Positions 6,323 through 63,975 of a stretch of 64,000 nucleotides of DNA are shown in pieces. How positions within the stretch are numbered: position 1 is the stretch's first letter; every line of letters starts with the position of its first letter. Both the position numbers and the translations under genes were made by a program. The stretch is from positions 194,427-258,426 of the forward strand of contig NZ_BAABRU010000004.1 of the NCBI RefSeq assembly GCF_039545135.1, read 5' to 3'. A model generated the notes under the pieces. The model made no database searches, was not told the origin of the DNA, and was given only the letters and a program-made list of their open reading frames with translations. This stretch comes from Herpetosiphon gulosus (lineage in GTDB: Bacteria > Chloroflexota > Chloroflexia > Chloroflexales > Herpetosiphonaceae).

Positions 6323-6393
6323 GCCGTGCTTCGTTGCAATTGAGTAGATGGAATATCCATTTAAATAAACAAATGTGCCCATCTACCAAAGCA

Positions 6394-27352: not shown

Positions 27353-27386
27353 AGCTGTTCCTTTGTTAAATTCTACTCGAATAGTA

Positions 27387-28241: not shown

Positions 28242-28307
28242 CGATGACTCCTTAAGTGAAAATAAAAATTAATGAAGAACCTTTTCAATTCATCATTAAA
28301 ATCGCTC

Positions 28308-29216: not shown

Positions 29217-29230
29217 AAATACCTCGATGC

Positions 29231-29677: not shown

Positions 29678-29687
29678 TATGCTGCTC

Positions 29688-30569
29688 CTATTTCACAATC
29701 ACGCGACAAATTCCGCGCCCGACGGTTGCCTTGCCTCCAAGCTGAATTGGTTTTTGCCACAGTCGGGGTAGCTCGGCATTGATGCTTTCTCCTAAGTCTG
29801 TTTTTGAGGCTGGTGGAGCAATCAACATCAAGCCAGTCAAAATCGATTCAGCAGGTAAGGCTTCTTCATACCAAAGTTGGCCATCAGCAACTGTTTTGGT
29901 TTCATCGTTGAGCCGAATGCGGGCGGTTATTTCGGTGGCAGTATTCAAAAGAAAACTAAACACATCATCATTGACGATGCAGAAACGCTCAACAAACATC
30001 GTTTGCCAGTCTGGTGAATCATCAAAAATGCGCGCTTTGAGCCAATCAGCCCATTGGGTCACTAGCTCAGCTTGATCCGATTGAGATTCAAAATCCAAAT
30101 CTTCTAAATAAATGTCCTTGTGCTTTTCTGATTTTGGTAAGTTTGATTTAAGTGCTGATTTTGTAGCAACAAGACATTGATCGCCATCAGGATTTTTGAT
30201 CCAGCTTGGTGGGATGTTTTCAGCCACAAGATTTTTGATTTCGCGGGCAAGGCGATTGAGAATGTAGGGCGAGGTAACCCATGCGAAGGTGCCATACAAA
30301 CTGCGCACCGGCATGCACAACAAGCGCAGATCAGAAAATTGCACAAAGCCTGCATTACCAGTGGCGTTATCTGATGCTGTTCCAAAGATTTCATCTTTAC
30401 GAGCGCCATTGTAACTATCGCGCAATGGGCCTTTGAGCGATGAGCCAGGCAAATAGGGCAAATTGGTGGCTTTTTCGCGGGCAATCGGCAAATCGATAAC
30501 TCCAGCGCCTTGGCCAGTGCCAGCATGAAGTGGTGAAAGTGCATGGACAAAAACGAGTTTGGTGGTCAT
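29688..30569 (-). CDS. cmr4: Cmr4 (type III-B Cas7 backbone RAMP)
   Basis: VHALSPLHAGTGQGAGVIDLPIARE...LPYLPGSSLKGPLRD G-rich loop and Asp-containing catalytic region typical of Cmr4. Confidence 0.85.
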   Translation of the reverse strand: MTTKLVFVHALSPLHAGTGQGAGVIDLPIAREKATNLPYLPGSSLKGPLRDSYNGARKDEIFGTASDNATGNAGFVQFSDLRLLCMPVRSLYGTFAWVTSPYILNRLAREIKNLVAENIPPSWIKNPDGDQCLVATKSALKSNLPKSEKHKDIYLEDLDFESQSDQAELVTQWADWLKARIFDDSPDWQTMFVERFCIVNDDVFSFLLNTATEITARIRLNDETKTVADGQLWYEEALPAESILTGLMLIAPPASKTDLGESINAELPRLWQKPIQLGGKATVGRGICRVIVK

Positions 30570-30639
30570 TATCGTAGCTCCTTCGCAAGATACGCTAAAA
30601 ATGCTTTGAGAACAGTATTTTTTACCTAGTAACAGTAGA

Positions 30640-33584: not shown

Positions 33585-33609
33585 AGCAATCCTCCGAAAA
33601 CTTGTTGGA

Positions 33610-35421: not shown

Positions 35422-35620
35422 TACAACTCCCCAAAGAACTAACTGGCAACAGAGAGTGGTATAGTTGGAGTGGCTTGGTGGAATGCTAGGAGTTAAGTCT
35501 TATCCTACCAAGGATTGTCAAGCACAGCCTGTACTAGGTATAGATGCAATTTGGCGTGATTTTTTTGCAGCCAATTTGCGCATGTTTGCTTAATTGTTGA
35601 TTAATGGTTGCCACTACCCT

Positions 35621-47553: not shown

Positions 47554-47629
47554 TGGCTCCCTGACTAGGACTCGAACCTAGGACATGCTGATTAACAGTC
47601 AACCGCTCTACCAACTGAGCTATCAGGGA
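47554..47629 (-). tRNA. tRNA-Asn (anticodon GTT), CCA encoded
   Basis: Reverse complement folds as a cloverleaf: acceptor TCCCTGA/TCAGGGA, D-arm GCTC-AGTTGGTA-GAGC, anticodon loop CTGTTAA, T-arm CTAGG-TTCGAGT-CCTAG, discriminator G, then CCA. Confidence 0.85.
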
Positions 47630-47695: not shown

Positions 47696-48624
47696 GTTCG
47701 CCTAAAATGCGAAGCAAGCACCCTGTTTCAACAGGCTGCTTTGAAGGAGGTTTGGTATTTGTTTGCTCGCCAGCAACACCACATTGCTGCAATGCACTGT
47801 CGCCCTAACCAGCATTTTCTTAGAGATCGTTAACGTTCTGCTGGAGTAGGATATGGTACGCTGAAGCCTAACTTGACTCGACACATTCGAGCTTACCAAC
47901 AGGACTATTGATAACGGGTGCTTTAGTACATCAATAGTCTTCCCATTGGCTCTAGCATGCGCTCGTTGCTAGAAACCCAATAACAGGTGGTTGATGCTAT
48001 GACACGCCACCTGCTGGATAAGCAGGACAGATGCTATGACACGCTGCTTATCACCACGCTTCATGGGAATTCAGGATCATTGAATCCATGGAGCTTTACC
48101 ATAGGTCGTCTGGGAGTCCTGCTCACCGACTTCTTTATTTACGAACGCCGCTTGCGGCCTTCATAATTCAATGCGCTCCGGCTTTAACCAATTCATAAAA
48201 GATGGCCGTTCGGAGATTGACGGCCATCGCTCGCCATCGACACAATGCAAGGTTACGATGGTTGAGTTTGATATACCCATGACCTTGACTCAGTGTGTTT
48301 CCTGTCTTCCTCACACCTATTGGTGAATGACGGTTGGCTTTGTGTTGCCGCCAATTTGGAACGGTAACCCTCGCCACAGCCCTTTGCCAGTACCAAACGT
48401 GTAGGTTGCTTTGCTATACCCAAAAAATGGCGACCGCCATTGCTGGTTGTGCAAGCACCCCTTAACGCGGTGTGTCTGAAGACCTGTCATGAGATACCCC
48501 TTTAGCACCACCTGCGGGGGTATCCCATCACATACTCTTTCCGCTCCGCGCGGCCTCGAGTCGAGTATCTGCGAACGCACACGCTATCCCAGTGGGATAC
48601 CGCGATAGATCGAGGTCATGATTA

Positions 48625-49488
48625 ATGATTACGCAATGGATCGAAGAATATTTGTCCGCCAAAATCGCCGAACGCCGCAGCCCTGCTACCATCACTACCT
48701 ACCGTATCCGGTTAGGACGGTTTGGTGCTTGGGTCGTTGAACAACCCAATCAGGTGCTCACTCGTGCGTTATTGCGGGCCTACAGTGCGTACTTAGCCCA
48801 ACAAAACATCAGCATTGCCAGTCACTATAGTTATCTCAACGATGCCCTCGTCCTCGTGCGCTGGCTTGCTGAAGAAGGTTATATTCAACCCATTAAGACC
48901 GATAAACTCAAACCCCGATTACCCAAGCGCTTGCCTGCCCACTACACGATGGATCAAATTAAGCGCCTCCTGCTGGTTGCCGAGCTTCGTGAAAAAGCCA
49001 TGCTCTGTGTCTTACTGGATACCGGCGTTCGGGTCAGTGAACTGATTCAACTCCGCCGGACTAGCTTTGACTCGGAAGGCTGCGCCATGATTCTTGGCAA
49101 AGGCAGCAAGGATCGGTATATCTGGATTTCATCCGTGACCCAAGAAGTCCTTCGAACCTACATCGCCAGTCGGACGGATACGAACCCTGCGCTGTTTGTC
49201 AGCCATCGCCAGCAAAAAACGCTGACGATTAGCGGCGTACACCAGAGCTTCGATCGCTTAGCCTCCGACGCGGAGATCCGCAACGATGTGCGGCGTTTGA
49301 TTCACTCCTTTCGTGCCACCTTCGCCCGCGAACTGATCAAGAAAGGCCTTGATGCAGAAAGTCTACGGGTGTTGATGGGCCATGAAACGATTCAAATGTC
49401 TCTGCACTATGCACAACTCTCATCCCATGAGGCGACCCAAAATCGGCAAGGCGTGAACCTCCTCGAGAAGGTGGAGTCATGCTTATAA
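48625..49488 (+). CDS. Tyrosine recombinase/integrase (XerC/D-like)
   Basis: N-terminal SAM-like domain. Catalytic-domain motifs DTGVRVSEL (R), KGSKDR (K), HSFRATFA (HxxR), LMGHETIQMSLHYAQLS (catalytic Y). Confidence 0.85.
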   Translation: MITQWIEEYLSAKIAERRSPATITTYRIRLGRFGAWVVEQPNQVLTRALLRAYSAYLAQQNISIASHYSYLNDALVLVRWLAEEGYIQPIKTDKLKPRLPKRLPAHYTMDQIKRLLLVAELREKAMLCVLLDTGVRVSELIQLRRTSFDSEGCAMILGKGSKDRYIWISSVTQEVLRTYIASRTDTNPALFVSHRQQKTLTISGVHQSFDRLASDAEIRNDVRRLIHSFRATFARELIKKGLDAESLRVLMGHETIQMSLHYAQLSSHEATQNRQGVNLLEKVESCL

Positions 49489-49497
49489 GCCTCCAGT

Positions 49498-50151
49498 ATG
49501 CCCACCTATCCCGGTAGAAACAAGGGAAAAAGTGTACAGAAAGTCAGCACGTTTTTGACAAAAAACGTGCTGATAGGGGGATCTATGCCCATCGATGTTG
49601 GAATTGGTTTGGCCATGGCCACGATGCTGTATGCCGTGGTGCTTGAACGCTACAAGCACTATTTGGAGCCAGATTGGACGTGGATTGAAGTGGTTGTCGG
49701 AACCCTGCTGTGCGTGACTGCCGCAGGGATCGCCATCCGCCTTACGCCGAACGCCAGCTGGCCCCAGTATGAGCACCAGATCATCGCCAGCTTTGGCATT
49801 GGTGGTGGGGTCATTATTACGTGGCAAGTCTGGCGCATGATCAAACGTCGCCAACAAACCCGTGCGGTTGTCTTTGACCTCGTAAATGGCGACCACCAAG
49901 AAAGGGATGTGGATGCCACGGCGACGACTCCGTTGGCCGAACGTGGTGAACGAACATCGACTCGAAGCGCTAGCGAACGCCGCGCAATCGTCGAAGCAAG
50001 CTATCCGAGCCAAAGAGTTGCTCAACCAAGTGGTGCATCAGCGCTATCACTTGAACAATCCCGAAGCCGTCGAACTTATCCTGACCAAGATCGCCCTGCT
50101 GCTCGCAGAGATCGAGGCCAATCAGGAACGAATTCAGCGCCTCTTGATTGA
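49498..50151 (+). CDS. Hypothetical membrane protein (frame uncertain; overlaps alternative ORF 49886-50188)
   Basis: The first third has two hydrophobic helices (GIGLAMATMLYAVVL, VVGTLLCVTAAGIAI). The rest is Arg/Ser-rich. The alternative frame 49886-50188 encodes a helical 100-aa protein and could be an Xis-like factor. I cannot resolve the two from sequence alone. Confidence 0.3.
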   Translation: MPTYPGRNKGKSVQKVSTFLTKNVLIGGSMPIDVGIGLAMATMLYAVVLERYKHYLEPDWTWIEVVVGTLLCVTAAGIAIRLTPNASWPQYEHQIIASFGIGGGVIITWQVWRMIKRRQQTRAVVFDLVNGDHQERDVDATATTPLAERGERTSTRSASERRAIVEASYPSQRVAQPSGASALSLEQSRSRRTYPDQDRPAARRDRGQSGTNSAPLD

Positions 50152-50304
50152 TGCAGCCCACGGCGAAGAGAAAACGCCCGAGTCGTAAAACCCAGTTGCC
50201 CCAATGGCCATGTGCGATTGGGGCAGCATCCTCATTCCTTGCCCTTCGATAGAGATAGTAGTGTGCTGTGGTGAGTATCCTCCCGCAGCACCGAGGATAG
50301 ATCA

Positions 50305-51900
50305 ATGACGACACCGTTATATGCGCAGGTGCGCACTGCTATTCAGCAGTTGCTGGCAGGCCAGACCCTTGACCTGACCCGTGATTGGGGCGAATGGCTA
50401 TCGATGATCCAAAGTTTAGTCTATGCCTTTGAACAGGGCGGCTCGGCTGCCGTCCAAACCGCACTGGAAACCGCGATGCGGGTTGATAGTCGCGTTGCGG
50501 CGCTGGTGGTTGACCCTGCACCACCCACAGCCTTGCGCACCATGCCACCCTTACCGAGTGAATTGAGCAAAGCCATCCGGCAGCACGGCGCATGTGGCCA
50601 CTGGCTCGATACCTATATCGGCTATGCCAGTTATGCCAGTCCGGTCACGCCCGCGATTTTTCATGAAGCGGCAGGCCTCTTTTTGGCGGCGACCGCGATC
50701 GCGCGGCGGCTGTATCTGCAAATTGGCGAAACCTACTACTACCCCAATGTCTATGCGCTATTTGTGGCTCCTCCTGGGCGCTATGCCAAATCGACGGCGA
50801 TGAAGGTCGTCGAGCGGGTATTGCGTCGCGCAGGTCTTGGCCATTTGCTACTACCCGACAAAAGCACGCCCCAGTCGCTGCTCCAGCAGTTTTCGACCGT
50901 CATTCCTGACAAACTGGACAGCTACAGTGATTACGACCGTGAGCAATGGCTACTCGCTCGCGCTCAAGCGGCCCAACGGGCATGGTTGCTTGATGAAGCG
51001 GGATTTCTCTTCAGCGATATGAAGAAAGAGTATATGGCCGAGCTGCTCTCGCTCTTACTCAAGCTGTTTGATAATCCCGAATACTTGGCCCACGAAACCA
51101 TCACCCATGGCCGAACAACCATCCGTGATGCCAGTCTTTCATTCCTTGGCGCAACCACACCGAAAAACATCGAGGAGCATCTGCGCAGCGAAAAGCTGTG
51201 GGATGAAGGCTTATGGAGTCGCTTCGCGATTCTGATTCCTGAGCACGACCCGATTTATGCCGAGTTTCCTGATGAACTCACCATGCCCCCGGCGCTGCTC
51301 GATGGCCTGAAACACCTCGATTTGCTGTTTCCGAAGCCCGACGCTGAACTGGTTGATGACGTACCCGAGGAAAATATCAAGCGCTTTGTGCGGATCTATA
51401 ACGAGCATCCCCCCAGCGCTATCCGCCTCGCGCCCGGGGTCATGAGTCTCTGGAAACGCTATGACAAGGCCGTCCGGTTTGACCTGCCCAATAACGGCTT
51501 ACCCGACACGCTGTATGCCAGCTATGCCCGTTTCCCGGGGCATGTGTTGCGGGTGGCCATGATTCTGGCCGCCATGGATTGCCCTGAGTTACCCGTGATG
51601 ATGCAGCTCGATCACCTCAAACGCGCAATCACGATCGTCGAGCGCTGGCGCAGCGACTTGCATCGGATTTGGAGCGATGGGATTCGGAGTGAAGAAACCA
51701 AGCTGGGAGATAAATTGGTCGGCATGCTCAAAGCCTCGCTCTCGGGCTTGACTGTGCGCGATATCTGCCGCCAAACCAACCAATCCAAAAAAGAGATCAC
51801 CGAAGTCCTTGAAGTCTTACGCCTCGCAGGCCAAATTGACGTGCTGGAGACCAAAGCCGCCAACGGTCGGGTGATGCAACTGTGGAGATATAGCGCATGA
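50305..51900 (+). CDS. Hypothetical replication-associated protein (DUF3987-like; family assignment tentative)
   Basis: 531-aa ORF just upstream of the iterons and the primase gene. No Walker A. Family recall is weak. Confidence 0.45.
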   Translation: MTTPLYAQVRTAIQQLLAGQTLDLTRDWGEWLSMIQSLVYAFEQGGSAAVQTALETAMRVDSRVAALVVDPAPPTALRTMPPLPSELSKAIRQHGACGHWLDTYIGYASYASPVTPAIFHEAAGLFLAATAIARRLYLQIGETYYYPNVYALFVAPPGRYAKSTAMKVVERVLRRAGLGHLLLPDKSTPQSLLQQFSTVIPDKLDSYSDYDREQWLLARAQAAQRAWLLDEAGFLFSDMKKEYMAELLSLLLKLFDNPEYLAHETITHGRTTIRDASLSFLGATTPKNIEEHLRSEKLWDEGLWSRFAILIPEHDPIYAEFPDELTMPPALLDGLKHLDLLFPKPDAELVDDVPEENIKRFVRIYNEHPPSAIRLAPGVMSLWKRYDKAVRFDLPNNGLPDTLYASYARFPGHVLRVAMILAAMDCPELPVMMQLDHLKRAITIVERWRSDLHRIWSDGIRSEETKLGDKLVGMLKASLSGLTVRDICRQTNQSKKEITEVLEVLRLAGQIDVLETKAANGRVMQLWRYSA

Positions 51901-52185
51901 GAAGTGTCATAAGTGTCATGAAGTGTCATAAACGGTTTATGACGCTAAAAACCCACTTGGGGAGCCGCTTCCTTGAGAAGTGTCATAGTGTCATAAGGGG
52001 ACATGTCCAATTTAATAAGGAACATGTACGCGAGACCGATGAGACCACACAAAATCAAAAAATAGCATGACACTTCTGACACTATGACACTTCTCCGTTC
52101 TATCCCATTGGAAAGCCCTAAATCGTTGATTTTGGCTGCATGACACTTCTCTGACACTTCATGACACTTCTCGTGGGAGGGTTCA
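51901..52185. promoter_or_regulatory. Iteron field: at least 10 copies of AAGTGTCAT / ATGACACTT in direct and inverted orientation (candidate origin or primase/initiator binding sites)
   Basis: Direct copies at 51901-51930 and 51977-51996. Inverted copies at 52067-52096 and 52141-52172. Read directly from sequence. Confidence 0.55.
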
Positions 52186-53322
52186 ATGATTGAACATCTT
52201 TCGGGCGATGATTTTCTTTCTTTGGTTGGCCAGCGCACCGCCCTGCGCAAAGTGGCCGCAACCAATGGCGGTGAATGGGCGGGAGCATGCCCTTTGTGTG
52301 GAGGGAAGGATCGCTTTCGGGTGCAACCGCATGGGGATCGTGGTGGCCGCTGGTGGTGTCGCAGTTGTCGCGATGGCCAGCCGTGGGCTTCGGATATTGA
52401 TTTTGTCTTTCTACGCGATCACGGCTTTATCCCCAGTACCGATCATCCAGAGTGGCCTGCGTTGATCAAAGAGGCTTTTGCCACACTGGGGTTGACGATC
52501 GAGCAATCACGACCATCGACGAAGGTCGTCCCTGACCCTGAGCCACCGAATGATTGTGAGCCACCCGCTGCGCTTTGGCAACAAGCCGCCCTGAGTTTTC
52601 TTGGCTACGCGGTTGATATGTTGTGGAAGGATGGGGATAGCCAGCCCTCGCCACGCACCTACTTACACCAGCGTGGCCTGACCGATCATACGCTCCGCGC
52701 TGCCGCGATTGGCTACAACCCCAAACCGCTCTACCGTCCGCTGCACAAGTGGGGACTGACAGACCCGAAGAAAGATGGCGTGTGGTTGCCTGCGGGCTAT
52801 GTGATCCCATGGTTTTGTGATGGGCAGCTCTGGAAGCTCTCGATTCGCCAAACGACCCCGCGCGACGAGGGCATGAAATACGTGACGATTGCTGGCAGCA
52901 GCAATGTGCCCTATGGCATTGATACCTTCCGCGCAGGCCGCCCGGGTATTCTGGTGGAAGGGCCGATTGATGCGTTGGTGGCCCAACAAGCACTTGGCCA
53001 ATTCGAACGCCATGGGCAACCACTCAGCGGGGTTGCGGCGATTGGCACAACCCAAGGGCGCGGCTTTCGTTGGCTCGTCCAATACAGCCTCTGTCAGCCG
53101 CTCTTCATTGCCACCGATGCCGATCAGGCAGGCGATAAGGCCGCTGCCTATTGGCTCGATATCTTCAAAGGCAAAGAGGTTGCCCGCATGCGGCCCGACC
53201 CGCACGATTTTGGCACGATGGCGGTGCAGTGTGGCATGGATTTACGGTCGTGGATTGCCACCCATCTTGATCGCTGGTGGACGGGCGACCTCGCCCCTAG
53301 CCCGATTCAATCAGTTGCCTAA
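52186..53322 (+). CDS. DNA primase, zinc-finger + Toprim type (DnaG-like, element-encoded)
   Basis: CPLCGGKDRFRV...WWCRSC zinc-binding motif. Toprim Glu in ILVEGPIDAL and DxD in FIATDADQAGDKAA. Confidence 0.7.
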   Translation: MIEHLSGDDFLSLVGQRTALRKVAATNGGEWAGACPLCGGKDRFRVQPHGDRGGRWWCRSCRDGQPWASDIDFVFLRDHGFIPSTDHPEWPALIKEAFATLGLTIEQSRPSTKVVPDPEPPNDCEPPAALWQQAALSFLGYAVDMLWKDGDSQPSPRTYLHQRGLTDHTLRAAAIGYNPKPLYRPLHKWGLTDPKKDGVWLPAGYVIPWFCDGQLWKLSIRQTTPRDEGMKYVTIAGSSNVPYGIDTFRAGRPGILVEGPIDALVAQQALGQFERHGQPLSGVAAIGTTQGRGFRWLVQYSLCQPLFIATDADQAGDKAAAYWLDIFKGKEVARMRPDPHDFGTMAVQCGMDLRSWIATHLDRWWTGDLAPSPIQSVA

Positions 53323-53394
53323 GACCTGAATGTTTTCTCCTGATATTTAGCGGCGATGGGTGGGTGTATCCCATCCATCGCCGAGGAGCCTGTT

Positions 53395-54384
53395 ATGACC
53401 ACTCTCGTCCATGGGGCCAATATTGGCCATGGCTATGTCAAATATACGATCAATGCTGGTGATCACGAAGAAACAATTATTTTCCCAGCGCTGGTGGCTC
53501 CCGCCAGTAGCACCGATGGCAATCTGCACGATGTGCCCACCGTGGACGTTCACGGCACACTCTGGTGGACAGGTGATGATGCCCTGTTGCACCCCGCGCC
53601 CTTATCACTCCGCTCGCAACAACGGCTCTACGATCGCCACATTATCCCTGCGCTGGTCAAAGGAGCGTTACAGCGCCTCAAGCAGCCCTGTGGTGGCGCA
53701 TGTGTGACTGGACTCCCTGCGGCCTGGTCCGGCGAACGGGATTTAGCGGTGGCCTTGGGGTCGCGGCTGCGAGATGCGGTTGCAACCCAGTACTATCACG
53801 GCACAACCCTGAAAACGGGCATCCGCGTGATTAGTGAACCGCTTGGCGCGTTGTATGGCGTGTTGCTCGACCCCAGTGGGGCGATTACCACTAGTGGCTA
53901 TGAGATGAGTCGGGTTGGGGTGATTGACTTGGGCCACAACACCGTGGATGCCTGCATTGTCCAAGCGATGAATGTGGTGCCCGAAAGTGCGATTAGCTTC
54001 GAGTTGGGTAGCGCCAGTCCGCTCCAGCAGCTCCAGACCAAGATTAGCGGGCGCTACAACCTTGATCTGACTTTACACGAAGTTGATCACGCGGTGCGGG
54101 CAGGCTATGTACGGGTCGCGGGTGAGGAATGCGATCTGCCAACCGGATGGGATCGCCCATGGCTGGCCAATGGCCAACAGGTCGCGGATGCGCTTGTGCG
54201 AGCGTGGGGCAGCGGCGCGAAACTGGCGGCGATTATTGTGGCGGGTGGTGGTGCAGAAATGCCCATGCTGGTTCAAGCGATTCACCAGCGTTTCCGCCAA
54301 ACGATCGTTGCACCCAACCCACAAACGGCGATCGCCCGTGGCTATGCCCGCCGTGCGCGGCGCTACGAGGAGTTTGGCCAATGA
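53395..54384 (+). CDS. Actin-like ATPase (ParM/StbA family) segregation protein
   Basis: Phosphate-1-like VHGANIGHGYVK and phosphate-2-like GVIDLGHNTVDA motifs. RBS GAGGAG upstream of the ATG at 53395. Confidence 0.55.
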   Translation: MTTLVHGANIGHGYVKYTINAGDHEETIIFPALVAPASSTDGNLHDVPTVDVHGTLWWTGDDALLHPAPLSLRSQQRLYDRHIIPALVKGALQRLKQPCGGACVTGLPAAWSGERDLAVALGSRLRDAVATQYYHGTTLKTGIRVISEPLGALYGVLLDPSGAITTSGYEMSRVGVIDLGHNTVDACIVQAMNVVPESAISFELGSASPLQQLQTKISGRYNLDLTLHEVDHAVRAGYVRVAGEECDLPTGWDRPWLANGQQVADALVRAWGSGAKLAAIIVAGGGAEMPMLVQAIHQRFRQTIVAPNPQTAIARGYARRARRYEEFGQ

Positions 54385-54773
54385 GTTTTGATGAACGCCT
54401 GACGACGCGCAGCTCCGGCGTGCTGAGCGCGATGATTGCCAGTCTCGGCAATGAATCCGCCGTACTTCGCGCCCTTGTGATTATTGGCTTGCACACCTGT
54501 GGCAAAAACATCCAGCTATTCACTGCCGATGCCTTGGCCAGCGTCGCCCGCCTTGATGATCACGCCGTGCGGGACACTTTGCTGGCGGTGCTGATGAAAC
54601 CTGTTGAACAAGCGTTGCACCCACGTTCCCCCAGCGTTGAACCCGTGTTACACGCCAGTACACCATCTGTTGAACACACGTTGCACACCAGTACACCACC
54701 TGTTGAACAAATCCCAGTTCCGCCGCCCACGACGCTCGATCTTCCGCCTGATCCCGAGTACCAAGATGTGTAA
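54381..54773 (+). CDS. Hypothetical protein, translationally coupled to the ParM-like gene (ATGA overlap); possible ParR-like adaptor
   Basis: Start ATG overlaps the upstream stop. Pro/Thr-rich C-terminal tail with repeated PSVE(P/H)xLH. Confidence 0.35.
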   Translation: MSFDERLTTRSSGVLSAMIASLGNESAVLRALVIIGLHTCGKNIQLFTADALASVARLDDHAVRDTLLAVLMKPVEQALHPRSPSVEPVLHASTPSVEHTLHTSTPPVEQIPVPPPTTLDLPPDPEYQDV

Positions 54774-55644
54774 ATGAAAGGGAACTGCTATGACTTCACC
54801 TTCAGCCGTGCTGGCTCGGATTGAAACAATCACGCGTGTTTTGCAGGACGTGGTTCAAGGATTACAGGGAAAGCCCTTCCACTGGGGCGGAGGGCAACGC
54901 GAACACTGGATGCCCTTACTGGCAACCATGGGCTTCCATTTGATCACGAAAACCCAAATCGCCAAACAAGGCTATCGCTTAAAACGGGGGGCGCAGCCTG
55001 TGGGCACAGTCTACTACGACGCACCCTTGCAACGCTATGCCGATGTCTATCTCCGTGAATGCCAGTGTGTCGCGCTTACTGATTCCGCATCGGCAGATGA
55101 TTCGGCGCTTGACCAACAAAAAACCGCCGATGAATAAGCATCGGCGGCGTGCATCACCGGAGAACACCAAAGTGATGCAGCGCTAGTATACCAAAGGAGA
55201 ACACCATGACAACATCGGATGTGTTATTTGATCTGCACCGCCTTGATCCTAGCCGCAAACTCATCAAAGGCCTCGCCTGCACGCTCGGCTGGGGCAATAG
55301 CATTGTTACCACCGTCTCGACCCTGAGCGATTTTCAGCATTGGCTGTGGGGAATTCGTGATTATCGCGGCATCCTCGCGGGGCTGGGGGTCGCGCTGTTT
55401 CTCTTCCTTGGCCAACTCTATACCTTGCGCCGGACTGCGTGGGGCTATGGCTGTTTTCTGGCTCCCGATGCCATGATTACGGCCTATAAATGGTGTGAAT
55501 GGTTGTTTTACCCCATCGCCTACAAACTGGCTTCCGGCCTGCCAGCGCTGGCCCTCGCGTGGGGTGCAGGCTTGGCGCTCGGGGTTGTCTCAGCGCGGTG
55601 GCCCGAATATCTGGCCTTTGGCCGCACTGTACAGGAGCATCCGC

Positions 55645-56757
55645 ATGGATATTAATTCGCCGTGGCTCTATCCGTTGATTTTTCTGTTTGCCTGTAGTTT
55701 TGTTGGCACGTTTCTGTGGTGGCATGCACGCACCCCTACCAGCGAACGCCGCCATGCCGCTGCGCCTACCGCACCCGTGCGTGCGACAAATCCGGCACGG
55801 CCAGTCGTGGTGGAGCGTCCGCGTGGTGAAACCTCACCGGAACCCACGACCACCAGTTTATCAACCTATTCATGGCCCATGCTGCTCGACACCTTGGCCA
55901 AGCGCCCGCATATTGGGATTGCTGGCCCCTCGCGCCAAGGCAAGTCGGTACTGAGTATGGCCCTGACCTATCTTCGCGCCGTCGATGGTCACCAGCTGGT
56001 GATTCTCAACTCACATGCGCGACCGAATGATTACGGCGGCTTGCCACAAATCTATGACTATCCGGCGATCAACCGCGTGATGAAAGCGTTGCTGGCTGAG
56101 CTAGGGCGACGCAAGGCCGCTGCGGCCACAGGCGTGAATCATTTTGATCCGATTACGGTGGTGTTGGAAGAAGCGCCTGATGTCATGAGCAAGGTGCATG
56201 GCGAAGATGGCTCAGCCGCCAAACCTAAAGTGCCTGTTGCGCAGCGCTTTGTGGGCGAAATGCTCCGCCAAGCCGCCAAGTATCGCATGCATCTGATCCT
56301 TGTGACCCAAACCACCTTAGTCAAACCACTGGGCATTGAAGGCGATAGCGAAGCACTCGATAACTTGCTCTGGATTGCGATTGGCGATCGGGCCTTGGAG
56401 AAAATGAAGTCGCCCCTCGTTGCCCCATGGCCTGCGGCGATTGAGTGGAATTGTCAATGGTTTTGGTGCAATCGCGAACCGGCGTGGATGTTATCGACCC
56501 GCCCGATTGACCCAGCACGCCTGTGGCGAGTTCCCGATTCCATGGGAGATCCCGCAGGTGATTCCCCGCTTGGAACCATGGGAACTAGCGATGAGAGCCT
56601 GATTGATGAGGCCACGTTGACCGATGTCATCCTGATTACCAAGCTCATCCTTGCTGGCAAAAGTGGCAACGAAATTATTGACAGCTTGGGTGGCAAACGC
56701 ACGCGCCGTCTCAGCCAAATTCGCCATGTCAAGCAGGTGCTTGATCTTGGCGCTTAA
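55645..56757 (+). CDS. Membrane-anchored P-loop ATPase, FtsK/SpoIIIE/TraB-like (candidate DNA-transfer protein)
   Basis: N-terminal TM (WLYPLIFLFACSFVGTFLWW), Walker A GIAGPSRQGKS, and a hydrophobic Walker-B-like HLILVTQT. RBS AGGAG upstream of the ATG at 55645. Confidence 0.5.
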   Translation: MDINSPWLYPLIFLFACSFVGTFLWWHARTPTSERRHAAAPTAPVRATNPARPVVVERPRGETSPEPTTTSLSTYSWPMLLDTLAKRPHIGIAGPSRQGKSVLSMALTYLRAVDGHQLVILNSHARPNDYGGLPQIYDYPAINRVMKALLAELGRRKAAAATGVNHFDPITVVLEEAPDVMSKVHGEDGSAAKPKVPVAQRFVGEMLRQAAKYRMHLILVTQTTLVKPLGIEGDSEALDNLLWIAIGDRALEKMKSPLVAPWPAAIEWNCQWFWCNREPAWMLSTRPIDPARLWRVPDSMGDPAGDSPLGTMGTSDESLIDEATLTDVILITKLILAGKSGNEIIDSLGGKRTRRLSQIRHVKQVLDLGA

Positions 56758-57554
56758 TACCGAAAGGAATCATTCTTATGACCACGACACCGATGACCAT
56801 TACCTTGACCGAAACCCTTGATCTGCCGAAACACGGCCAGCATACCGTGCAAATCACCGTGACCCCACCGAGCACCGAGCCGCACGATCTCGCTCCCTTG
56901 CTGCAACAGGCGACCATGACCCTCTTTCAGCAACTGGATGCTGCCCTGATTCGTGTTCAGCAGCCACCGCGCTATCTGTGTGGTGCACTGTGTAGCGTGC
57001 TCGTCTGCCCATTTCTTGGGTTGTATCTGCGTGTTCCCCAAAGCACGCCGCTCGAAACCCTGCTGGCGGAAACGGTGATCGATGCCAAGGGCGATGCTCA
57101 CCAGCTCTGGACGGTCGCACTGATGGCCGTTCCGCCAGCGCTTGTCTTGCCGCATATCCCTGTGCTTATTCATGCTTTTTCGATCCAAGGGGCGAAGTCA
57201 TGGCGGGAATATCGCGGCGAAGGTGATACCCTGCTTGCAGAACGCTTGCATGAGTGGCAACACGCTATTCCTGAACCAGTACGAACCGATGAACACTGGC
57301 TTAGTGGACTTTAATTGAGTATTCGAGGCCGTGGCTGCTACATTAAGCAAGCCACGGCCATTTGGTGATCAGGATGCTTGCGGCATTCTTGCCCATTCAT
57401 ATCGTGTTCAAACCGTGTTCATATCGCGTTCAGATGGTCTACAAATCGCCAAGTAAAAAATAGCGCACTAGAATCGCCTAAATTGGCTATTTGGTCGTGC
57501 CGACATTCTTTAACAGGCTGCACAGCCACCAATTATCGTGTGAGGAGTGATTGA

Positions 57555-58490
57555 ATGACAACCCATACCTCCGTTGGCCTTAATCCCACTGAGCTGCACA
57601 TCCTGCTGCTCGTTGCTCGGCTTGGTCGCTTGCTGTCACGCCACCTGCGCACCGCGTGGGGCCATCCGTTTACCGTGACGATTCAGACCGTCAATCGCAC
57701 GTTGGCCAAGCTGGTTGATGCCAAGCTGCTGATCTATTGCGAACACTTTCAATCGCATGGCTATGATCCGCGTGGTGCGATCGGGTGGACACGCCATGGC
57801 CGCTTATATAGTCTCACGCCCCTTGGCTGGGAGATCGTCAAACAGGCCTTTCCCATGCTGGAGGAAGGCAGTGAGCGGCTGGCTCCCACGATGTTTAATC
57901 CCCAACATCAAGCCGAACACCAAATTGAGTATGCCGAGTTCATCACCAGCTTGATTCAGTCGCTACCGTATGTGCCTGGTATTGTCGGCATGAGTAGTTA
58001 TATTGAGATGGACTTAGGCCCAACCGCACGGCCACGCGCTGATGGCATTGTTGTGGTGCGGCGCTGGGCCGATGCGACGCAGCCCGATTCTGAGCGCTCG
58101 TCGTTGTATCCATGGCTTGGGATTGGCCAACAGCAAGGGCAAATTGATCAACTGTATGCGATTGAAATCGATCGGGGAACCGAGGAGTTGAGTATTATTA
58201 CGGGGAAAGCCCATTCGTATGGGGAATTATATCGATCGAAGTATTGGGAAGGGCGCTATAGCTGGCCTTTAATTGCCTTTACCGTGCCGAGCGAACGCCG
58301 CAAACGGGCCGTGCTTGATGCGTGGGAAATCGGCTGGCCCGGCAGCCAGCTGCTCATTGCGACCATCGACGATGTGCGTGAGTCGGGTATTCTCACGCCG
58401 ATATGGACGACCCAGTACACCAAGCAAGGCCAACGGATTCAGCAATCGCATCGGTTTTTGCGAGCTGCTTGGTTTGAAAAGGTTATATGA
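57555..58490 (+). CDS. Hypothetical wHTH protein (possibly replication-relaxation family)
   Basis: N-terminal segment LHILLLVARLGRLLSRHLRTAW...VNRTLAKLVDAKLL resembles a winged helix. Family assignment is weak. Confidence 0.35.
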   Translation: MTTHTSVGLNPTELHILLLVARLGRLLSRHLRTAWGHPFTVTIQTVNRTLAKLVDAKLLIYCEHFQSHGYDPRGAIGWTRHGRLYSLTPLGWEIVKQAFPMLEEGSERLAPTMFNPQHQAEHQIEYAEFITSLIQSLPYVPGIVGMSSYIEMDLGPTARPRADGIVVVRRWADATQPDSERSSLYPWLGIGQQQGQIDQLYAIEIDRGTEELSIITGKAHSYGELYRSKYWEGRYSWPLIAFTVPSERRKRAVLDAWEIGWPGSQLLIATIDDVRESGILTPIWTTQYTKQGQRIQQSHRFLRAAWFEKVI

Positions 58491-58519: not shown

Positions 58520-59521
58520 TCATAAATATTCATCTATATCTATAATTATATTTTTATTTTTCTTCATATATAATTTGAATTCATCAATAAAATTTTCAGT
58601 GGCAAAAATAAGAGTTAATATATCGTTTTTATTTATTTCTATATCAATGAATGCCTCGTGAACTATTTTATGTCTTATTGTTATATATTTAGCTATTACT
58701 TTTTTGATATTTATTTCTTTTTTATTGAATATTTTGTTTACATTAAGTATTTTCTCTATATCTATCTCAATTTCATTAAATGCGCTTATTATTTTTGGAA
58801 TATTTTGAAATGATGTTAATCTTGCATATTCATCTCCAATTGTTACCTTTTTTGTATACATATTCTTGAAGCTATGTAAATCTAATTTTTTTAATATATT
58901 CTTCTGAATAGACTCTTGGTTATTGACATAAATTACAAAGAAATTTTTTAGAAACTCTTCTATTGAAGATACTATGTAAGGAATGATTAGATTATTTATA
59001 ATAATACCTTTATCAAATCTTAACATCCATGGTAAATTCTCTTTTTTATAATTAAATTCATCAATATCATCTTGAACAGCTATTTTTGATGTAATTATAT
59101 TATTTATGAAATTTCTATAGACTATAGAGCATCCGCGTTCAATAACAGTAAATTCTGGTATTTCATAATAAAGATATGAACACACTCCTTCTTGAGGATT
59201 ATATAGACTTCCTAGAAAAGCTTTTTTTAATTGTTTAATTACATTATTTTGTGCCTCCAGATCTGCAAAAGAACGTCCAGCATTTGAATAGGCATGAAAA
59301 ACTACTTTTGTATCCTTGGGAACATTTTCAACCGGATTATAGTCAATAAATAGCCAACATCCACGGGTAGACTCATAATTATTCTCATTGAACCAGTAAT
59401 AACTTAGACCTTTGTAACCAGAATAATAGGTTGCTTTTTTCCATCCTAATGGAAATATAATTTTTTCAATTTGCCGACGAGTAGGCTGATTTTTAGTTCT
59501 AAGAAATAAATCAATACTCAT
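58520..59521 (-). CDS. AT-rich hypothetical protein (333 aa) with C-terminal Rx4H (HEPN-like) motif
   Basis: About 25% GC. C-terminal ...AKYITIRHKIVHEAF... contains R-x4-H. No other recognised domain. Confidence 0.5.
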   Translation of the reverse strand: MSIDLFLRTKNQPTRRQIEKIIFPLGWKKATYYSGYKGLSYYWFNENNYESTRGCWLFIDYNPVENVPKDTKVVFHAYSNAGRSFADLEAQNNVIKQLKKAFLGSLYNPQEGVCSYLYYEIPEFTVIERGCSIVYRNFINNIITSKIAVQDDIDEFNYKKENLPWMLRFDKGIIINNLIIPYIVSSIEEFLKNFFVIYVNNQESIQKNILKKLDLHSFKNMYTKKVTIGDEYARLTSFQNIPKIISAFNEIEIDIEKILNVNKIFNKKEINIKKVIAKYITIRHKIVHEAFIDIEINKNDILTLIFATENFIDEFKLYMKKNKNIIIDIDEYL

Positions 59522-59600
59522 TACTTGCTCCTAGAATCTGGAATTAATGATTTAGGTTCTTTCTGATAATCCATGCTAGACTATCCGACAGGAGGTACGC

Positions 59601-60135
59601 ATGGCTCTCCATGAATTGACCAATACCCAATTTGCCGTGATTGCACCGATCCTACCGACCGAAACCTGCCGTGGCCGCCCATGGAATGACCACCAATGCG
59701 TGGTTAATGGCCTATTTTGGCAACGCAATACCATGATTCTATGATGCGATATTTCCGACCGCTTTGTACTCTGGTAACACGGCGGAACCTGGGAATGCAT
59801 CCTTACCTCCTTGCATATGTCCTTAAATGCCATGGATGCCTCGAGTGGCAGTAATTGACCATCGATGGCATGCTTATTTGCGTCGGTCGTACCGTTGCGG
59901 CGCATGAAAAAAATCTTTGATGACACATGAATCCACTAACCAAACCCTCGGATGTTTCTACGGCAGATTCGGTACCAAATCCACCTCCTTTAGTTTAGAT
60001 GGTCGTGTACATCCGTTATCCTCCTGTCTTACGCCTAGACAGATCCACGAAGGCACCGCGTTCGAAACCCTGATCGTTATGCTCCAGCAGCACGGACAAC
60101 CCGGCACCCGTCCACACTCATTGGTTGATGATTGA
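59601..60135 (+). pseudogene. Degraded IS5-family (IS427/IS1031-like) transposase remnant, multiple frameshifts/stops
   Basis: MALHELTNTQFAVIAPILPTETCRGRPWNDHQCVVNGLFWQ matches the conserved N-terminus of IS5-family transposases (L..EQW..IEPLLP...GRPR.D.R.VLNGI). Downstream fragments lie in other frames. Confidence 0.6.
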
Positions 60136-60791
60136 GGCGATGATGACCGTTGTATCAGACAGTGGACTCAGCAATATGGGATTCGGTCGGTGATTCTGCC
60201 ACGCCGACGACGCGGTGAATGCAAGGCTGTCCGTCCAGTTTCTATGGCTAACAGGCTTGCCATGCCCGCACTGTGGTTGAGCCCGCCAATGGCGGGCGCA
60301 AGGAGTGTCGGTTGGTTGAGAAGAGAAACTGGCTCTGAATTATCTTGTATTGATGCATCTAGCCATGATTCAACGATTGGTTCGTATCATTGTACCGTTC
60401 ATATAGCCATCCTGAATTATAAGGCCTACGGTAATATGCTATTAAAGTAAAGGTGCTGTTTTTGATCATTTTCGTGGTATTCTGAATCTTTCCAATGGAA
60501 GCTTAAGGAATTAAATTATCAAACAAAATATATTCTCCAGCCTCTTCCTACTGTCAATGTGTTGTGATTAACTGGAGTCAGTGTGCCTTTAGAATCCATT
60601 ACTGCCAATACATCCCATGATATCCAAACGTATCTGGATACAAGATCACTATCAAAATGAGGATAACAGTACTTATCAGAACTTACTTTATACGTTTTAA
60701 TTTAACTATTTAACTAGTTGGCTTGACATACCTGATAGGATATAGCAACTAGAATTACACCTTAATCTTATAAAAACATCATAACATTTCT

Positions 60792-62846
60792 ATGCACTTG
60801 AAGGAGTTACCTATGATCTCAGATGTAGAGAAAAAACGTTCTATTTTACTTACGACAAAACTAAGGTTTTCTCCAGAAATTCAACCTTTAAAACAGACTG
60901 TTATTAATAATATTATTTTACAAATAATTTATACAAATTCATCATTAAATAGGTGGAGGATAGAAACTATTAATGAAAAAATCTATTCTCAGATTGGACA
61001 TCAGATTAATAATGATGATTTAAACTTATCTTTAAAAAGTCTTATTTCTCAAGAAATGATTGAGGAACTAAATAATGGAGGGCATAAAACATATAAACTA
61101 TCTGATATAGGAAAAAAGTTAATAGATAAGCATCAAATTGAGGCAGAGAATAGGTTGGATAGGGTTCTACATGAACTTTTTTCGAATTCAGAAATACACT
61201 CATCTTTATATACCGATCCTTTCCTTGATGTTATATCAAGAATATTTTCAAAAATAGGTGAAGATAATGCTCGTTTAATAAAAGGAGATTTATCTAATGA
61301 AGATTTATTGAATTATATATCATTACCAGATATAATAAAGGGGGTAGTTTTTAAATCTTCAAATATTAATTATGCTGTATTTGAATCTGGAATAAATAAT
61401 TTTTTTAGAAAAAATGACCCTGATTTTGATATTATTAAATGGAATATGGCTCAGAATTATTATATAACAAAATCTTTAGGAATTGATCCTTCTGGATCAA
61501 TCCTTTCTAAAGAATTATATGAAAATGCTGTTTTCTATCTTGATACTAATATAATTATTACAGCATTAGAAGAAAATCACGAGTATCATCATAGTTTTTT
61601 ATTTTTTATTGAAATGTGTAGTAAATTGAATATATCAATCAATATTTGTCAAATATCACTAGATGAAATGAATGAATGGTTATCATATCAGAGAGAGATA
61701 ATAGAAAAAACTATAAGCAATATACCTGATGGACTGTCAAGTAAAATCAATTCACTGATATATGATATATATCTTAAGAAAGTAGAATTACATAATTATG
61801 AAAATATAGATGATTTATTTACTAGTTTTTCTAATGCATCAAATAAGTTAGAGTCTGAATTTGAAATAAAATTATTTCATAATGATTGGTTTTCTAATAA
61901 TAATGATAAACCGGAAGTGAATAATTTTGCTGAAAAGATTAGAGATAGATATTTTAAAACTCGTAATAGAAAAAAATCTCGTAGAGCACCAAAACATGAT
62001 GCTTTATTATTAATGTGGATAGAAAAAGAACGGAGAGAAAAATCTTTAAACACATGGCTAATTACAGCTGATTCTTCTTTACCAGGTATAGTACCTAATA
62101 GATCAATAGATTCTTCTTTAGCTATTACTATGGATGCAATTATCCAATGGATATCTCCTGTAAATATTTCCAATGAAGATGAATTTAGTTCTATATTCTC
62201 AGAAATGATAAAATTAAGACTATTTCCTCAGAATAAAATATTTATGCTAGAAGATTTTCTTATTTTTCATGAAATGAATATTTCATGCAAAGAGTTACCT
62301 ATTGAAGATGTAGAACAATGCATTAGATATATTAAGAGGAATATTCCAAATATGGATATATCTAAATCATCTGATAGAGAAAGATTACACTATGAGATGA
62401 GTAGATTTTTTAAAGATCCAAGTCGAAAATATCAAGAAGAGTTATCAAAGCTCGAAAGAGAGAAATCAGAAATGAGTATGAATTTTGAAAGAGAGAAATC
62501 AGAAATGAGTATGAATTTTGAAAGAGAGAAATTAGAAATAAATAATTCTATTTCTGATTTTAGAGAAAAACTATCTAATATGGAAAGTGAAATAAATATA
62601 AATAAAATAAAAAGTATAGTAAATAAAAAAATGTTCAGAAGTGTGTTGCTACTTTTTATAGTAATTTCTATAACAGTCTACATTGCCGAAGGAAACACCT
62701 TCTACGAAAAGATTAGTGGGTGGTGGCAAGTGTATACTTTTATCTTTGGAGTATGGATTTTTCTTGTTTCTATTTGGATAGGGAAAGAAGGACTTAGAAC
62801 GCTTGGATGGCCATTTACCAAAATTTTTGGAATAGAAGATAAATAA
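60792..62846 (+). CDS. AT-rich large hypothetical protein (684 aa) with PIN-like motif and C-terminal double TM; candidate defense/abortive-infection cargo
   Basis: About 24% GC. NAVFYLDTNIIITALEE resembles a PIN/DUF4935 first strand. Tandem EREKSEMSMNF repeats. C-terminal hydrophobic helices (VLLLFIVISITVYIA, VYTFIFGVWIFLVSIWIG). Confidence 0.55.
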   Translation: MHLKELPMISDVEKKRSILLTTKLRFSPEIQPLKQTVINNIILQIIYTNSSLNRWRIETINEKIYSQIGHQINNDDLNLSLKSLISQEMIEELNNGGHKTYKLSDIGKKLIDKHQIEAENRLDRVLHELFSNSEIHSSLYTDPFLDVISRIFSKIGEDNARLIKGDLSNEDLLNYISLPDIIKGVVFKSSNINYAVFESGINNFFRKNDPDFDIIKWNMAQNYYITKSLGIDPSGSILSKELYENAVFYLDTNIIITALEENHEYHHSFLFFIEMCSKLNISINICQISLDEMNEWLSYQREIIEKTISNIPDGLSSKINSLIYDIYLKKVELHNYENIDDLFTSFSNASNKLESEFEIKLFHNDWFSNNNDKPEVNNFAEKIRDRYFKTRNRKKSRRAPKHDALLLMWIEKERREKSLNTWLITADSSLPGIVPNRSIDSSLAITMDAIIQWISPVNISNEDEFSSIFSEMIKLRLFPQNKIFMLEDFLIFHEMNISCKELPIEDVEQCIRYIKRNIPNMDISKSSDRERLHYEMSRFFKDPSRKYQEELSKLEREKSEMSMNFEREKSEMSMNFEREKLEINNSISDFREKLSNMESEININKIKSIVNKKMFRSVLLLFIVISITVYIAEGNTFYEKISGWWQVYTFIFGVWIFLVSIWIGKEGLRTLGWPFTKIFGIEDK
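62454..62540 (+). repeat. Two and a half tandem 33-nt repeats (GAAAGAGAGAAATCAGAAATGAGTATGAATTTT) within the AT-rich gene
   Basis: Exact duplicate units at 62454 and 62487, with a diverged third copy. Confidence 0.8.
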
Positions 62847-63069
62847 TTTAGTGAATTATTTATCTTCTATTCCAAGCCCTTGATAATTACAGTGATCAAG
62901 GGCTTCCTTAACTATATGTAGGTTCTATTTGATCATTCAAGATATCGCATACCGTCGCAAAACCTCATTGATATGCTGATTGGGACGGTATTCTTGGTCA
63001 TTTTCTCATGTACATTATGGTATTTGTGCCTTCCCAAGTCCCAAGGGAGGCTTAAGGATTTATCAGTAT

Positions 63070-63975
63070 CTAAATCAATGAGTGACTATTTGCCATTACC
63101 ATCTCCAATAACGGCAGCGGCTCCTCGGGCACGAGCTGCACTGCTGCCAGATTGAAGCCATCCACTTGGACTTCGGCCAAGACAAAGCCATTCAGGCGAT
63201 TGGCCACCGCGCTACTGGTGGGCAGCACATCGCGGAACAGCAGCATGTCCCCCGGTCGCGCTTCCGTCGCTGGATAGACCATGCCATCCACGGTCTCCAG
63301 TACCGCACATGTCAGGCTGGCCGCAGCTTCGCCTTTGGCCGCGTCACTCAGAAACACACTGGTTCGTTGCGTGGCCACGGCGAGCGTCCCGCCGTCAACG
63401 GGCAGCGCCGTGCGCCGAACCAATCCGCTATTGGCCAGCGCTTGGGCATCGGTTTGGATGGGCGTGCGCTGGCGTTGGCCCTGCTCATCCTCATAGACCC
63501 CATAGCCACTCGTCCAGCGTCCATCGCTATTGCCGCCTTGGGTATAGCTGCATTGCTCGGTACTGACATACCACACCCGCCCCGACTGGCGCGGACGCAC
63601 GAACAGCACGCCATCCTCATCAACACCCCAGACCCATGGACGGTTGCTGGTATCCCCCAGCTGCACCTGCTCGCTCAGGATGGTGGCCCACGGCTGATCG
63701 TCCGCTGCAAGATTCGCAATATCGACGAGCGGACTTTGCACTTTGCCATCGCTGTTGAAGACTGCCCATGGATTGACCGCCAATACCTCACTCAAGGCAT
63801 ACTTGGCCACTTGATCGAGTGTCACGGTTGGCGTGGTGACGGCTTTGACCCGCACGTTAGTGATCACCAACTCAATATCGCCATCATTGCCATCCCACAG
63901 CGGCTCCACCAGATCGCTGCCAAGGTGGGCATTGCGAAACACGGCGGTAAAGGTCGTCGCGGTCGTGGCCGTCAC
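63070..63975 (-). CDS. Hypothetical protein (301 aa) of the integrated element; possibly a structural protein
   Basis: GTG start with a GGAGGA RBS. The sequence is Thr/Val/Gly-rich and resembles beta-rich phage structural proteins, but I found no diagnostic motif. Confidence 0.4.
   Translation of the reverse strand: MTATTATTFTAVFRNAHLGSDLVEPLWDGNDGDIELVITNVRVKAVTTPTVTLDQVAKYALSEVLAVNPWAVFNSDGKVQSPLVDIANLAADDQPWATILSEQVQLGDTSNRPWVWGVDEDGVLFVRPRQSGRVWYVSTEQCSYTQGGNSDGRWTSGYGVYEDEQGQRQRTPIQTDAQALANSGLVRRTALPVDGGTLAVATQRTSVFLSDAAKGEAAASLTCAVLETVDGMVYPATEARPGDMLLFRDVLPTSSAVANRLNGFVLAEVQVDGFNLAAVQLVPEEPLPLLEMVMANSHSLI

Follow-up and report, generated by a model that had tools for sequence, protein, structure and literature searches.

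Two very AT-rich genes lie side by side, in divergent orientation, within an integrated element of Herpetosiphon gulosus (Chloroflexota), and the question raised by this locus is whether they encode one two-gene defence system or two separate proteins. The locus was analysed in a window of 64,000 nucleotides (contig NZ_BAABRU010000004.1, positions 194,427 to 258,426), to which all coordinates refer. The minus-strand gene encodes a protein with a HEPN domain, and the plus-strand gene a larger protein combining a PIN domain with a transmembrane (TM) hairpin, hereafter PIN-TM. The remnant of an insertion sequence (IS) is located between them:

58520..59521, minus strand: HEPN gene, 333 aa (GAA5527617/WP_345721241), with AGGAG 7 nt upstream of the ATG
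about 59575-60410, plus strand: decayed IS remnant, probably of the IS5 family, GC content 0.507, ends approximate, N-terminal piece from 59602
60813..62846, plus strand: PIN-TM gene (GAA5527619/WP_345721243); the open reading frame (ORF) opens at 60792 (684 aa) and the likely start is M8 at 60813 (677 aa)

The two AT-rich genes are not a conserved two-gene system

A first-pass annotation of this DNA had described two divergent genes of 333 aa (minus strand) and 684 aa (plus strand), of very low GC content inside a GC-richer element, and had read them as a defence pair. Both ORFs were found as placed (58520-59521 and 60792-62846), and their GC contents of 0.250 and 0.261 compare with 0.556 for the element (48600-58400) and 0.491 for the chromosome to its left. 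At this AT-rich composition the chance of a stop codon is 0.096 per random codon, and consequently open frames of 684 codons (ln P = -69) and 333 codons (ln P = -34) are not attributable to chance. The two products match NCBI records at 100%, the 333-aa protein WP_345721241 ("HEPN domain-containing protein") and a 677-aa protein WP_345721243 ("hypothetical / DUF4935 domain-containing"). The 684-aa ORF exists at 60792-62846, but its true start is probably M8 (60813), as judged from a GGAG motif 7 nt upstream, the 677-aa length of the NCBI record and the position at which the homologues begin; residue numbers of PIN-TM nevertheless follow the 684-aa ORF throughout.

The proposed pairing did not withstand comparison with relatives. 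When both proteins were searched by tblastn over the first loci collected, no cross-match was obtained, and the partner family was likewise missing from the later loci L031-L035; in total, the two families did not co-occur in 17 PIN-TM and 7 distinct HEPN loci. The sizes of the two families are also unequal, with 14 relatives for the HEPN query and 116 for the PIN-TM query in a word-indexed search. All-vs-all clustering of the neighbouring ORFs revealed no family present in three or more loci of either kind, the exceptions being antisense ORFs inside the query genes, response-regulator-type ORFs 6-7 kb away in three PIN-TM loci and a methyltransferase gene in three HEPN loci, described below. 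An adjacent antitoxin of the VapB type was not found either, as no adjacent ORF is conserved over the 17 PIN-TM loci; in the window, only intergenic DNA and the IS remnant lie upstream of the PIN-TM gene. DUF4935 genes, the family name under which PIN-TM is filed, are usually monocistronic (Matelska et al. 2017, PMC5499597). HEPN and PIN-TM are not a conserved two-gene system, and of the abortive-infection or toxin reading of the first-pass annotation the domain calls and a role in biological conflict are reasonable, while the pair is not supported.

The clustering also revealed an RlmD-like (TRAM/tRNA-U5-methyltransferase) gene about 4 kb upstream of the HEPN gene in three loci, L006 and L025, which represent one metagenomic lineage seen twice, and L007, from Paenibacillus silvae. 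The region beside this gene may be a recurrent island-insertion site.

The explanation that we favour, with moderate confidence, is that the AT-rich block is foreign cargo carrying two functionally independent single-gene nuclease modules and not a two-gene system.

The HEPN and PIN-TM proteins and their relatives

The HEPN protein consists of an N-terminal alpha/beta domain (aa 1 to about 125) and a C-terminal HEPN domain (aa about 126-333), the latter with a predicted all-alpha four-helix HEPN fold. Residues 175-319 align to positions 30-189 of the 191 positions of the Pfam profile PF18735 (HEPN_RiboL-PSP), with a marginal score of 28.8 bits relative to a gathering threshold of 28.4, and all 13 relatives match the same profile at E<=0.1. 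The Rx4H motif previously noted as in HEPN RNases is present near the C-terminus, and its residues R283, H284 and H288 are invariant in 13 of 13 relatives:

58658..58675, minus strand: codons for R283-H284-K-I-V-H288, the Rx4H catalytic motif, from the alignment of relatives

The 333-aa protein is an Abi-like HEPN protein of the RiboL-PSP clade, and as such a member of an already known kind. This clade is distantly related to the AbiD/AbiF abortive-infection (Abi) HEPN proteins, and its members have been described as fused to endoRNase L-PSP or encoded in an operon with ParB (PF18735; Anantharaman et al. 2013, PMC3710099). Shared with the clade are the C-terminal profile match, the invariant Rx4H motif, the predicted four-helix fold and the occurrence as a stand-alone gene within defence islands and mobile elements. 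No Pfam match to L-PSP or ParB was obtained on the HEPN protein or among the called neighbours in L006, L007, L009 and L031, although the L-PSP fusion and ParB operon are described associations of the clade and not a requirement of the PF18735 model. Also unlike the clade, the protein carries a distinct N-terminal alpha/beta domain of about 125 aa, in which STRG and GRS motifs are invariant. Searching with this domain alone for fusions to other effectors returned only 8 candidates and 1 match. The UniRef label "Apea-like HEPN" could not be reproduced, as no match to HEPN_Apea was obtained at E<=1. Compared with the HepT toxins of the HEPN/MNT type VII toxin-antitoxin (TA) systems (e.g. PDB 7ae2, 5yep, 8xdj), the protein is about 2.5 times larger, has the extra N-terminal domain and shares about 10% identity, and an MNT antitoxin gene is absent next to the HEPN gene and its relatives.

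The contexts of the HEPN relatives are those of mobile DNA and defence. In P. silvae, genes for a PRTase, a reverse transcriptase and a serine recombinase lie nearby, a metagenomic contig carries an AAA_15/DUF4435 (PARIS-like) pair together with an IS3 element, and in B. licheniformis the HEPN gene is located on an ICEBs1-like element (Rep_trans, DUF961 and ImmR/ImmA-like genes), directly after an Abi_C gene.

The PIN-TM protein has a more elaborate architecture, as judged from an AlphaFold2 (AF2) model with a pLDDT (predicted local distance difference test) of 82.7 and a pTM (predicted template-modelling score) of 0.71, in combination with the family alignment:

60888..61178, plus strand: PadR/MarR-like winged helix followed by a long C-terminal helix (aa 33-129)
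61530..62141, plus strand: VapC-type PIN domain with a helical insert after strand 2 (aa 247-450)
62427..62633, plus strand: coiled-coil stalk, a long single helix (aa 546-614)
62454..62552, plus strand: 33-bp tandem repeat, 2.6 copies of which two are perfect, encoding 11-residue units EREKSEMSMNF inside the stalk
62634..62789, plus strand: C-terminal TM hairpin (aa about 615-633 and 646-664), from a Kyte-Doolittle scan and the alignment
62827..62906, plus strand: two consecutive stem-loops at the 3' end of the gene, folding energy -43.8 kcal/mol

A helical linker (aa 137-243) precedes the PIN domain in the model, the core strands of which (247-250, 282-286, 360-362, 421-425 and 444-446) build an alpha/beta/alpha PIN fold. 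The metal-chelating residues were assigned by comparison with the VapC layout (D in strand 1, E in the helix after strand 2, D in the helix before strand 4 and D after strand 4) as D251 (codon 61542-61544), E292, D403 and D427, and they are conserved in 229, 222, 228 and 228 of 229 family members, respectively. The PIN-like strand FYLDTNIII singled out in the first-pass annotation is borne out, with D251-T252-N253 present in all 229, and the same holds for the internal tandem repeats, found as 33 bp x 2.6, and for the two C-terminal TM helices. Following the PIN domain, the model places a helical domain (aa 462-541), a single 86-residue helix (aa 546-631) and two further helices (about 637-671). 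The hydrophobic hairpin is built from these two and the last part of the long helix, and a conserved tail, GWPFTKIF, comes after it. Basic residues flank both ends of the hairpin, which suggests an N-in/C-in topology. The stalk is the sole length-variable module of the family, spanning 25-97 aa between conserved anchor positions.

Further features of the protein and its gene were observed. An N-terminal peptide (aa 8-31) with the consensus KRSILLxxRxRFSPxxQP, in which R16, R25, F26, S27 and Q31 occur in 77-85% of 229 members, is poorly modelled by AF2 (pLDDT <50), as part of a low-confidence stretch at aa 1-30, and is a candidate autoinhibitory or interaction segment. At aa 363-367 (61878-61892) the window copy reads HNDWF, where the family has DDxWF (the two D in 196/229 and 192/229), with the canonical PIN acids intact. 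Four cysteines, C276 and C286 in the PIN domain and C499 and C510 in the next helical domain, are conserved in 68-87% of 229 members and could constitute a metal or redox site, if close in space. The first of the stem-loops is a perfect 22-bp inverted repeat across the last codons and the stop, and the second a GC-richer stem of 10 bp; they are not classical terminators, since a T-run is absent after both.

No significant Pfam match was obtained for the window copy, nor any PIN-family model at E<=1; among 32 aligned relatives, PF01850 (PIN) was matched by 23 at E<=0.1, PF16289 (PIN_12/DUF4935) by 17 (best E 4.4e-6) and PF13470 by 8, and UniRef names the protein a DUF4935 domain-containing protein. 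An exhaustive profile search retrieved 1374 representative clusters (50% identity) at E<=1e-3 and 478 at E<=1e-30, nearly all of 640-720 aa and aligned end to end, with strong conservation over the whole length (mean column identity 51%). Among species representatives 14 loci were found, in more than 10 phyla, with carriers in Aminicenantes, Desulfobacteraceae, Dehalococcoidia, Anaerolineae, Planctomycetota, Zixibacteria, Spirochaetaceae, Bryobacterales, Oligosphaera and Verrucomicrobiota as well as in Thermoplasmata and Thermococcus metagenome-assembled genomes (MAGs). Such a scattered occurrence is characteristic of accessory genes that spread horizontally, and in many loci the gene is poorer in GC than its flanks; the difference reaches 0.20 among the relatives and amounts to 0.30 in the window. 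A search of PHROGs gave nothing meaningful, and a full-text literature search returned no paper describing the architecture. PIN-TM is a large, uncharacterised and architecturally distinctive family and a credible single-gene defence candidate.

Defence and mobile-element genes are frequent next to the relatives. The PIN-TM gene is found between a short prokaryotic Argonaute (pAgo)/SIR2-like gene (E 3e-32) and an MkoA-like gene (E 2e-55) in L011, overlaps an HmaB-like methylase gene (E 7e-134) in L020, and directly follows a type I restriction subunit in L030 (an IMG/VR contig) and a type III methyltransferase in L013. It lies on an integrase-bearing element in L035, and adjoins coupling proteins of type IV secretion systems (T4SS) in L004 and L010. 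Three neighbourhoods contain other genes of interest. In L033 an AbiV-type HEPN gene (6171-6839) is located directly upstream of, and on the same strand as, the PIN-TM gene, with HigBA-like and Phd/ParE modules nearby. An MNT/HepT pair (11161-12005) lies two genes downstream of the PIN-TM gene in L034, and a Trypsin_2-type serine protease gene adjoins the PIN-TM gene in L035 (5810-6850) as well as the HEPN-family gene in L006 (9325-10329).

Measured against known PIN proteins, the 677 aa of PIN-TM exceed the approximately 130 aa of VapC toxins and the approximately 350 aa of DUF4935 proteins (PF16289; Matelska et al. 2017, PMC5499597), to which it adds the PadR-like winged helix-turn-helix (wHTH), the coiled-coil stalk and the TM hairpin, and no VapB antitoxin gene accompanies it here. 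An architectural parallel is found in SNIPE, which cleaves entering nucleic acid at the membrane and the nuclease of which turns toxic once its TM segment is removed (10.1101/2025.11.03.685801). Like SNIPE, the PIN-TM gene is stand-alone and of wide but sporadic occurrence. The resemblance is architectural only. The two proteins have unrelated folds and their parts run in opposite order, with an N-terminal TM segment, DUF4041 and GIY-YIG in SNIPE, and wHTH, PIN, coiled coil and C-terminal TM hairpin in PIN-TM; neither DUF4041 nor GIY-YIG gave a Pfam match in the window copy or its relatives.

The insertion-sequence remnant and the integrative element

The frameshifted IS5 transposase reported between the genes corresponds to an IS that is present and broken in frame, albeit more than frameshifted: it is heavily decayed, with transposase pieces spread over all three plus-strand frames and many stops within. 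The tentative assignment to the IS5 family relies on two matches. The N-terminal fragment matches PF13340 (DUF4096, the N-terminus of IS4/IS5 transposases) at E=8e-6 with 26.4 bits, below the cutoff of 34.3, as expected of a query that is a fragment, and the central fragment matches the annotated IS5-family transposase region of a Streptomyces plasmid in tblastn (33% identity, E=3e-4). A Pfam search with the concatenated central fragment and a DNA search of the segment against plasmids gave no match, no further copies were found within the window, and neither terminal inverted repeats nor a target duplication was found; the ends are approximate because the inverted repeats were not found. About 55 bp separate the remnant from the HEPN start codon, on its upstream side.

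The AT-rich block extends from about 58.49 to 63.0 kb, its left edge being the stop codon of a Replic_Relax gene and its right edge lying just before a 301-aa minus-strand ORF at about 63.0 kb. A scan of promoters and terminators returned 26 promoter-like sites, where 27 were expected, and 0 terminators. The tRNA-Asn-associated element that carries the block is integrative and plasmid-like, and its right end is located beyond the window:

47554-47629: tRNA-Asn gene, left of the integrase
48625-49488: tyrosine integrase, after tRNA-Asn
57555-58490: Replic_Relax protein gene

After the integrase, the element encodes in order a DUF3987 protein, a Zn-ribbon/Toprim primase, a ParM/ALP-like actin, a 420-aa ORF and the Replic_Relax protein. 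About 115 bp upstream of the latter gene, at 57396-57439, three overlapping copies of a 22-nt unit occur with 11-nt spacing (TTCATATCGTGTTCAAACCGTG...), which look like iterons or operator repeats. An imperfect 35-nt direct repeat brackets the PIN-TM gene at 60492-60526 (CCAATGGAAGCTTAAGGAATTA...) and 63041-63078 (CCAAGGGAGGCTTAAGGATTTA...). Its score of 30 compares with a shuffle mean of 19.8 +/- 2.4, and 1 of 300 shuffles reached 31; it was rejected as an att-like site, and may be due to chance or a trace of cassette insertion. Elsewhere in the window, a 632-aa ORF at 11328-13226 (plus strand) with AAA_15 (E 9e-17) and AAA_21 (E 2e-14) ATPase domains sits in a separate low-GC islet (0.37, relative to about 0.50 nearby) and is similar to ABC-type ATPases known from defence systems such as OLD, Gabija or the PARIS-like ones. 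Horizontal transfer may also have brought in a stretch of about 8 kb at 27000-35500, which has a low GC content (0.37-0.45) and carries several ORFs of 284-603 aa on the minus strand.

Functional interpretation and alternatives

Nuclease activity, with its substrates and triggers, and an anti-phage role are what we infer for both proteins. The shared extreme composition suggests that both genes came from a very AT-rich donor, possibly together; the nearest relatives are just 42-44% identical. The IS, of host-like composition, would have inserted later between the divergent genes and then decayed. Neither AT-rich ORF was disrupted in the same period, which speaks for purifying selection on the cargo.

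The most likely role of the HEPN protein is that of a stand-alone RNase of the Abi type. In this superfamily the active Rx4H site is a composite one, created when two HEPN domains dimerise; the N-terminal alpha/beta domain is a candidate trigger sensor or autoinhibitory module, and upon activation the Rx4H domain would cleave RNA and thereby stop growth of the infected cell. PIN-TM is most likely a dimeric, membrane-tethered nuclease, since dimer formation is a property of PadR units, of VapC PINs and of long coiled coils alike. The hairpin would anchor the protein and the stalk set the distance between head and membrane, while the winged helix would bind nucleic acid and the PIN domain, with its intact metal-binding site, cleave it. 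The target would be either invading nucleic acid or, after a trigger, cellular RNA, in both cases close to the membrane, and the host could be spared through the location or an autoinhibited state of the protein, analogous to SNIPE. Two variants can be envisaged: direct cleavage of entering nucleic acid at the membrane, favoured by the architecture, or abortive infection through an RNase that a membrane or phage signal sets free or activates, favoured with regard to substrate because VapC-type PINs usually are RNases. For the same reason, the substrate of PIN-TM may differ from that of SNIPE. Both the defence-island contexts and the hypervariable length of the stalk are consistent with a protein engaged in an arms race.

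Several observations weigh against two independent defence modules. The association of PIN-TM with defence islands is partial, because the locus in L001 is flanked by housekeeping genes only and the adjacent genes examined in L015, L016 and L018 gave no PADLOC match. Neither window protein matches PADLOC v2 at E<=1, 39 family members returned just scattered weak matches there (at most 3 members per model), searches of PDB sequences with both family profiles returned chance-level matches only, and tblastn of both proteins against PLSDB plasmids (72,556) and INPHARED phages gave no homologue. An antitoxin, which PINs of the VapC type usually require, is not evident at this locus. The HNDWF variant could have altered the activity of the window copy, and the IS about 55 bp upstream may have silenced the HEPN gene. 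Finally, L033 and L034 provide the sole hint of a loose, superfamily-level association between HEPN and PIN-TM.

An alternative that we regard as possible, if rather unlikely, is that PIN-TM serves the mobile element, either as a fused TA-like addiction module, in which the wHTH would act as a cis VapB-like inhibitor or autorepressor of the PIN domain, or as an entry-exclusion nuclease at the membrane. The combination of wHTH and PIN mirrors the DNA-binding VapB and VapC, the membrane anchor would suit a conjugation or entry site, and the copies in the window, L004, L010 and L035 reside on integrative or conjugative elements. However, many relatives are located in chromosomal restriction-modification (R-M) or defence islands lacking conjugation genes, or between housekeeping genes, and the 72,556 sequenced plasmids hold no homologue. 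This alternative overlaps mechanistically with defence, and sequence alone does not separate the two.

It is improbable that HEPN and PIN-TM form one two-component abortive-infection or toxin system, for instance a nuclease effector and a membrane sensor, split by the IS. The genes are adjacent, divergent and of the same extreme GC content (0.25 and 0.26), suggesting joint acquisition, and HEPN-type genes lie next to PIN-TM in L033 (AbiV) and two genes away in L034 (MNT/HepT). The latter cases are probably co-residence in defence islands, where HEPN genes are common and occasional adjacency is to be expected. Against a joint system, the families never co-occur in the loci compared, their sizes are very unequal (14 and 116, or 1374 PIN-TM clusters by profile search), and each protein already joins putative sensor or anchor and effector domains.

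Improbable as well is a role of PIN-TM outside conflict, as a membrane RNA-processing enzyme or as a tethered PadR-type regulator with a structural PIN domain. In RNase Y, too, a nuclease is joined to a membrane anchor and a coiled coil, and the whole-length conservation and the loci with housekeeping neighbours only are in line with such a role. Conversely, the spread is sporadic, in many loci the gene is lower in GC than its flanks, R-M, pAgo, Mokosh-like, Hma, Abi or TA genes are common in its neighbourhood, and the invariance of the catalytic acidic residues makes a purely structural PIN domain unlikely. That the block is decaying junk, intact by recent arrival and neither expressed nor functional, is very improbable: the position of the IS (which would have destroyed the HEPN promoter), the altered DDxWF, a composition that would invite silencing and poor translation and a promoter count at expectation are in its favour, yet the AT-rich frames of 333 and 684 codons stayed open at a stop chance of about 0.1 per random codon while the IS gathered many stops and frameshifts, no canonical catalytic residue has been lost, and each gene retains its ribosome-binding site.

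A bolder proposal can be made for PIN-TM, which we put forward tentatively and consider doubtful as yet. The wHTH-PIN-coiled-coil-TM family, with at least 1374 clusters in more than 10 phyla including archaeal MAGs, would be an unrecognised form of single-protein immunity, in which the coiled coil acts as a ruler that holds the PIN domain at a set distance from the inner membrane, where it cuts nucleic acid entering by phage injection or conjugation. As in SNIPE, location would distinguish self from non-self, although the two systems would have arisen separately and out of different domains, and rapid changes in stalk length, here by a fresh 33-bp duplication, would tune the reach to different entry machineries.

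The locus also shows that genes which are neighbours in a cargo island and alike in composition need not form a functional system. The HEPN gene brings a new N-terminal domain into the Abi-like HEPN repertoire. The PIN-TM family is abundant in anaerobic and environmental lineages that have received little study and have few validated defence systems (Dehalococcoidia, Aminicenantes, Desulfobacterota), and its variable-length stalk offers a structure-function hypothesis open to direct test. If PIN-TM is a defence system, evolution would have arrived a second time, independently, at a nuclease that is anchored in the membrane and guards the route by which foreign nucleic acid enters, and for the first time with a PIN domain.

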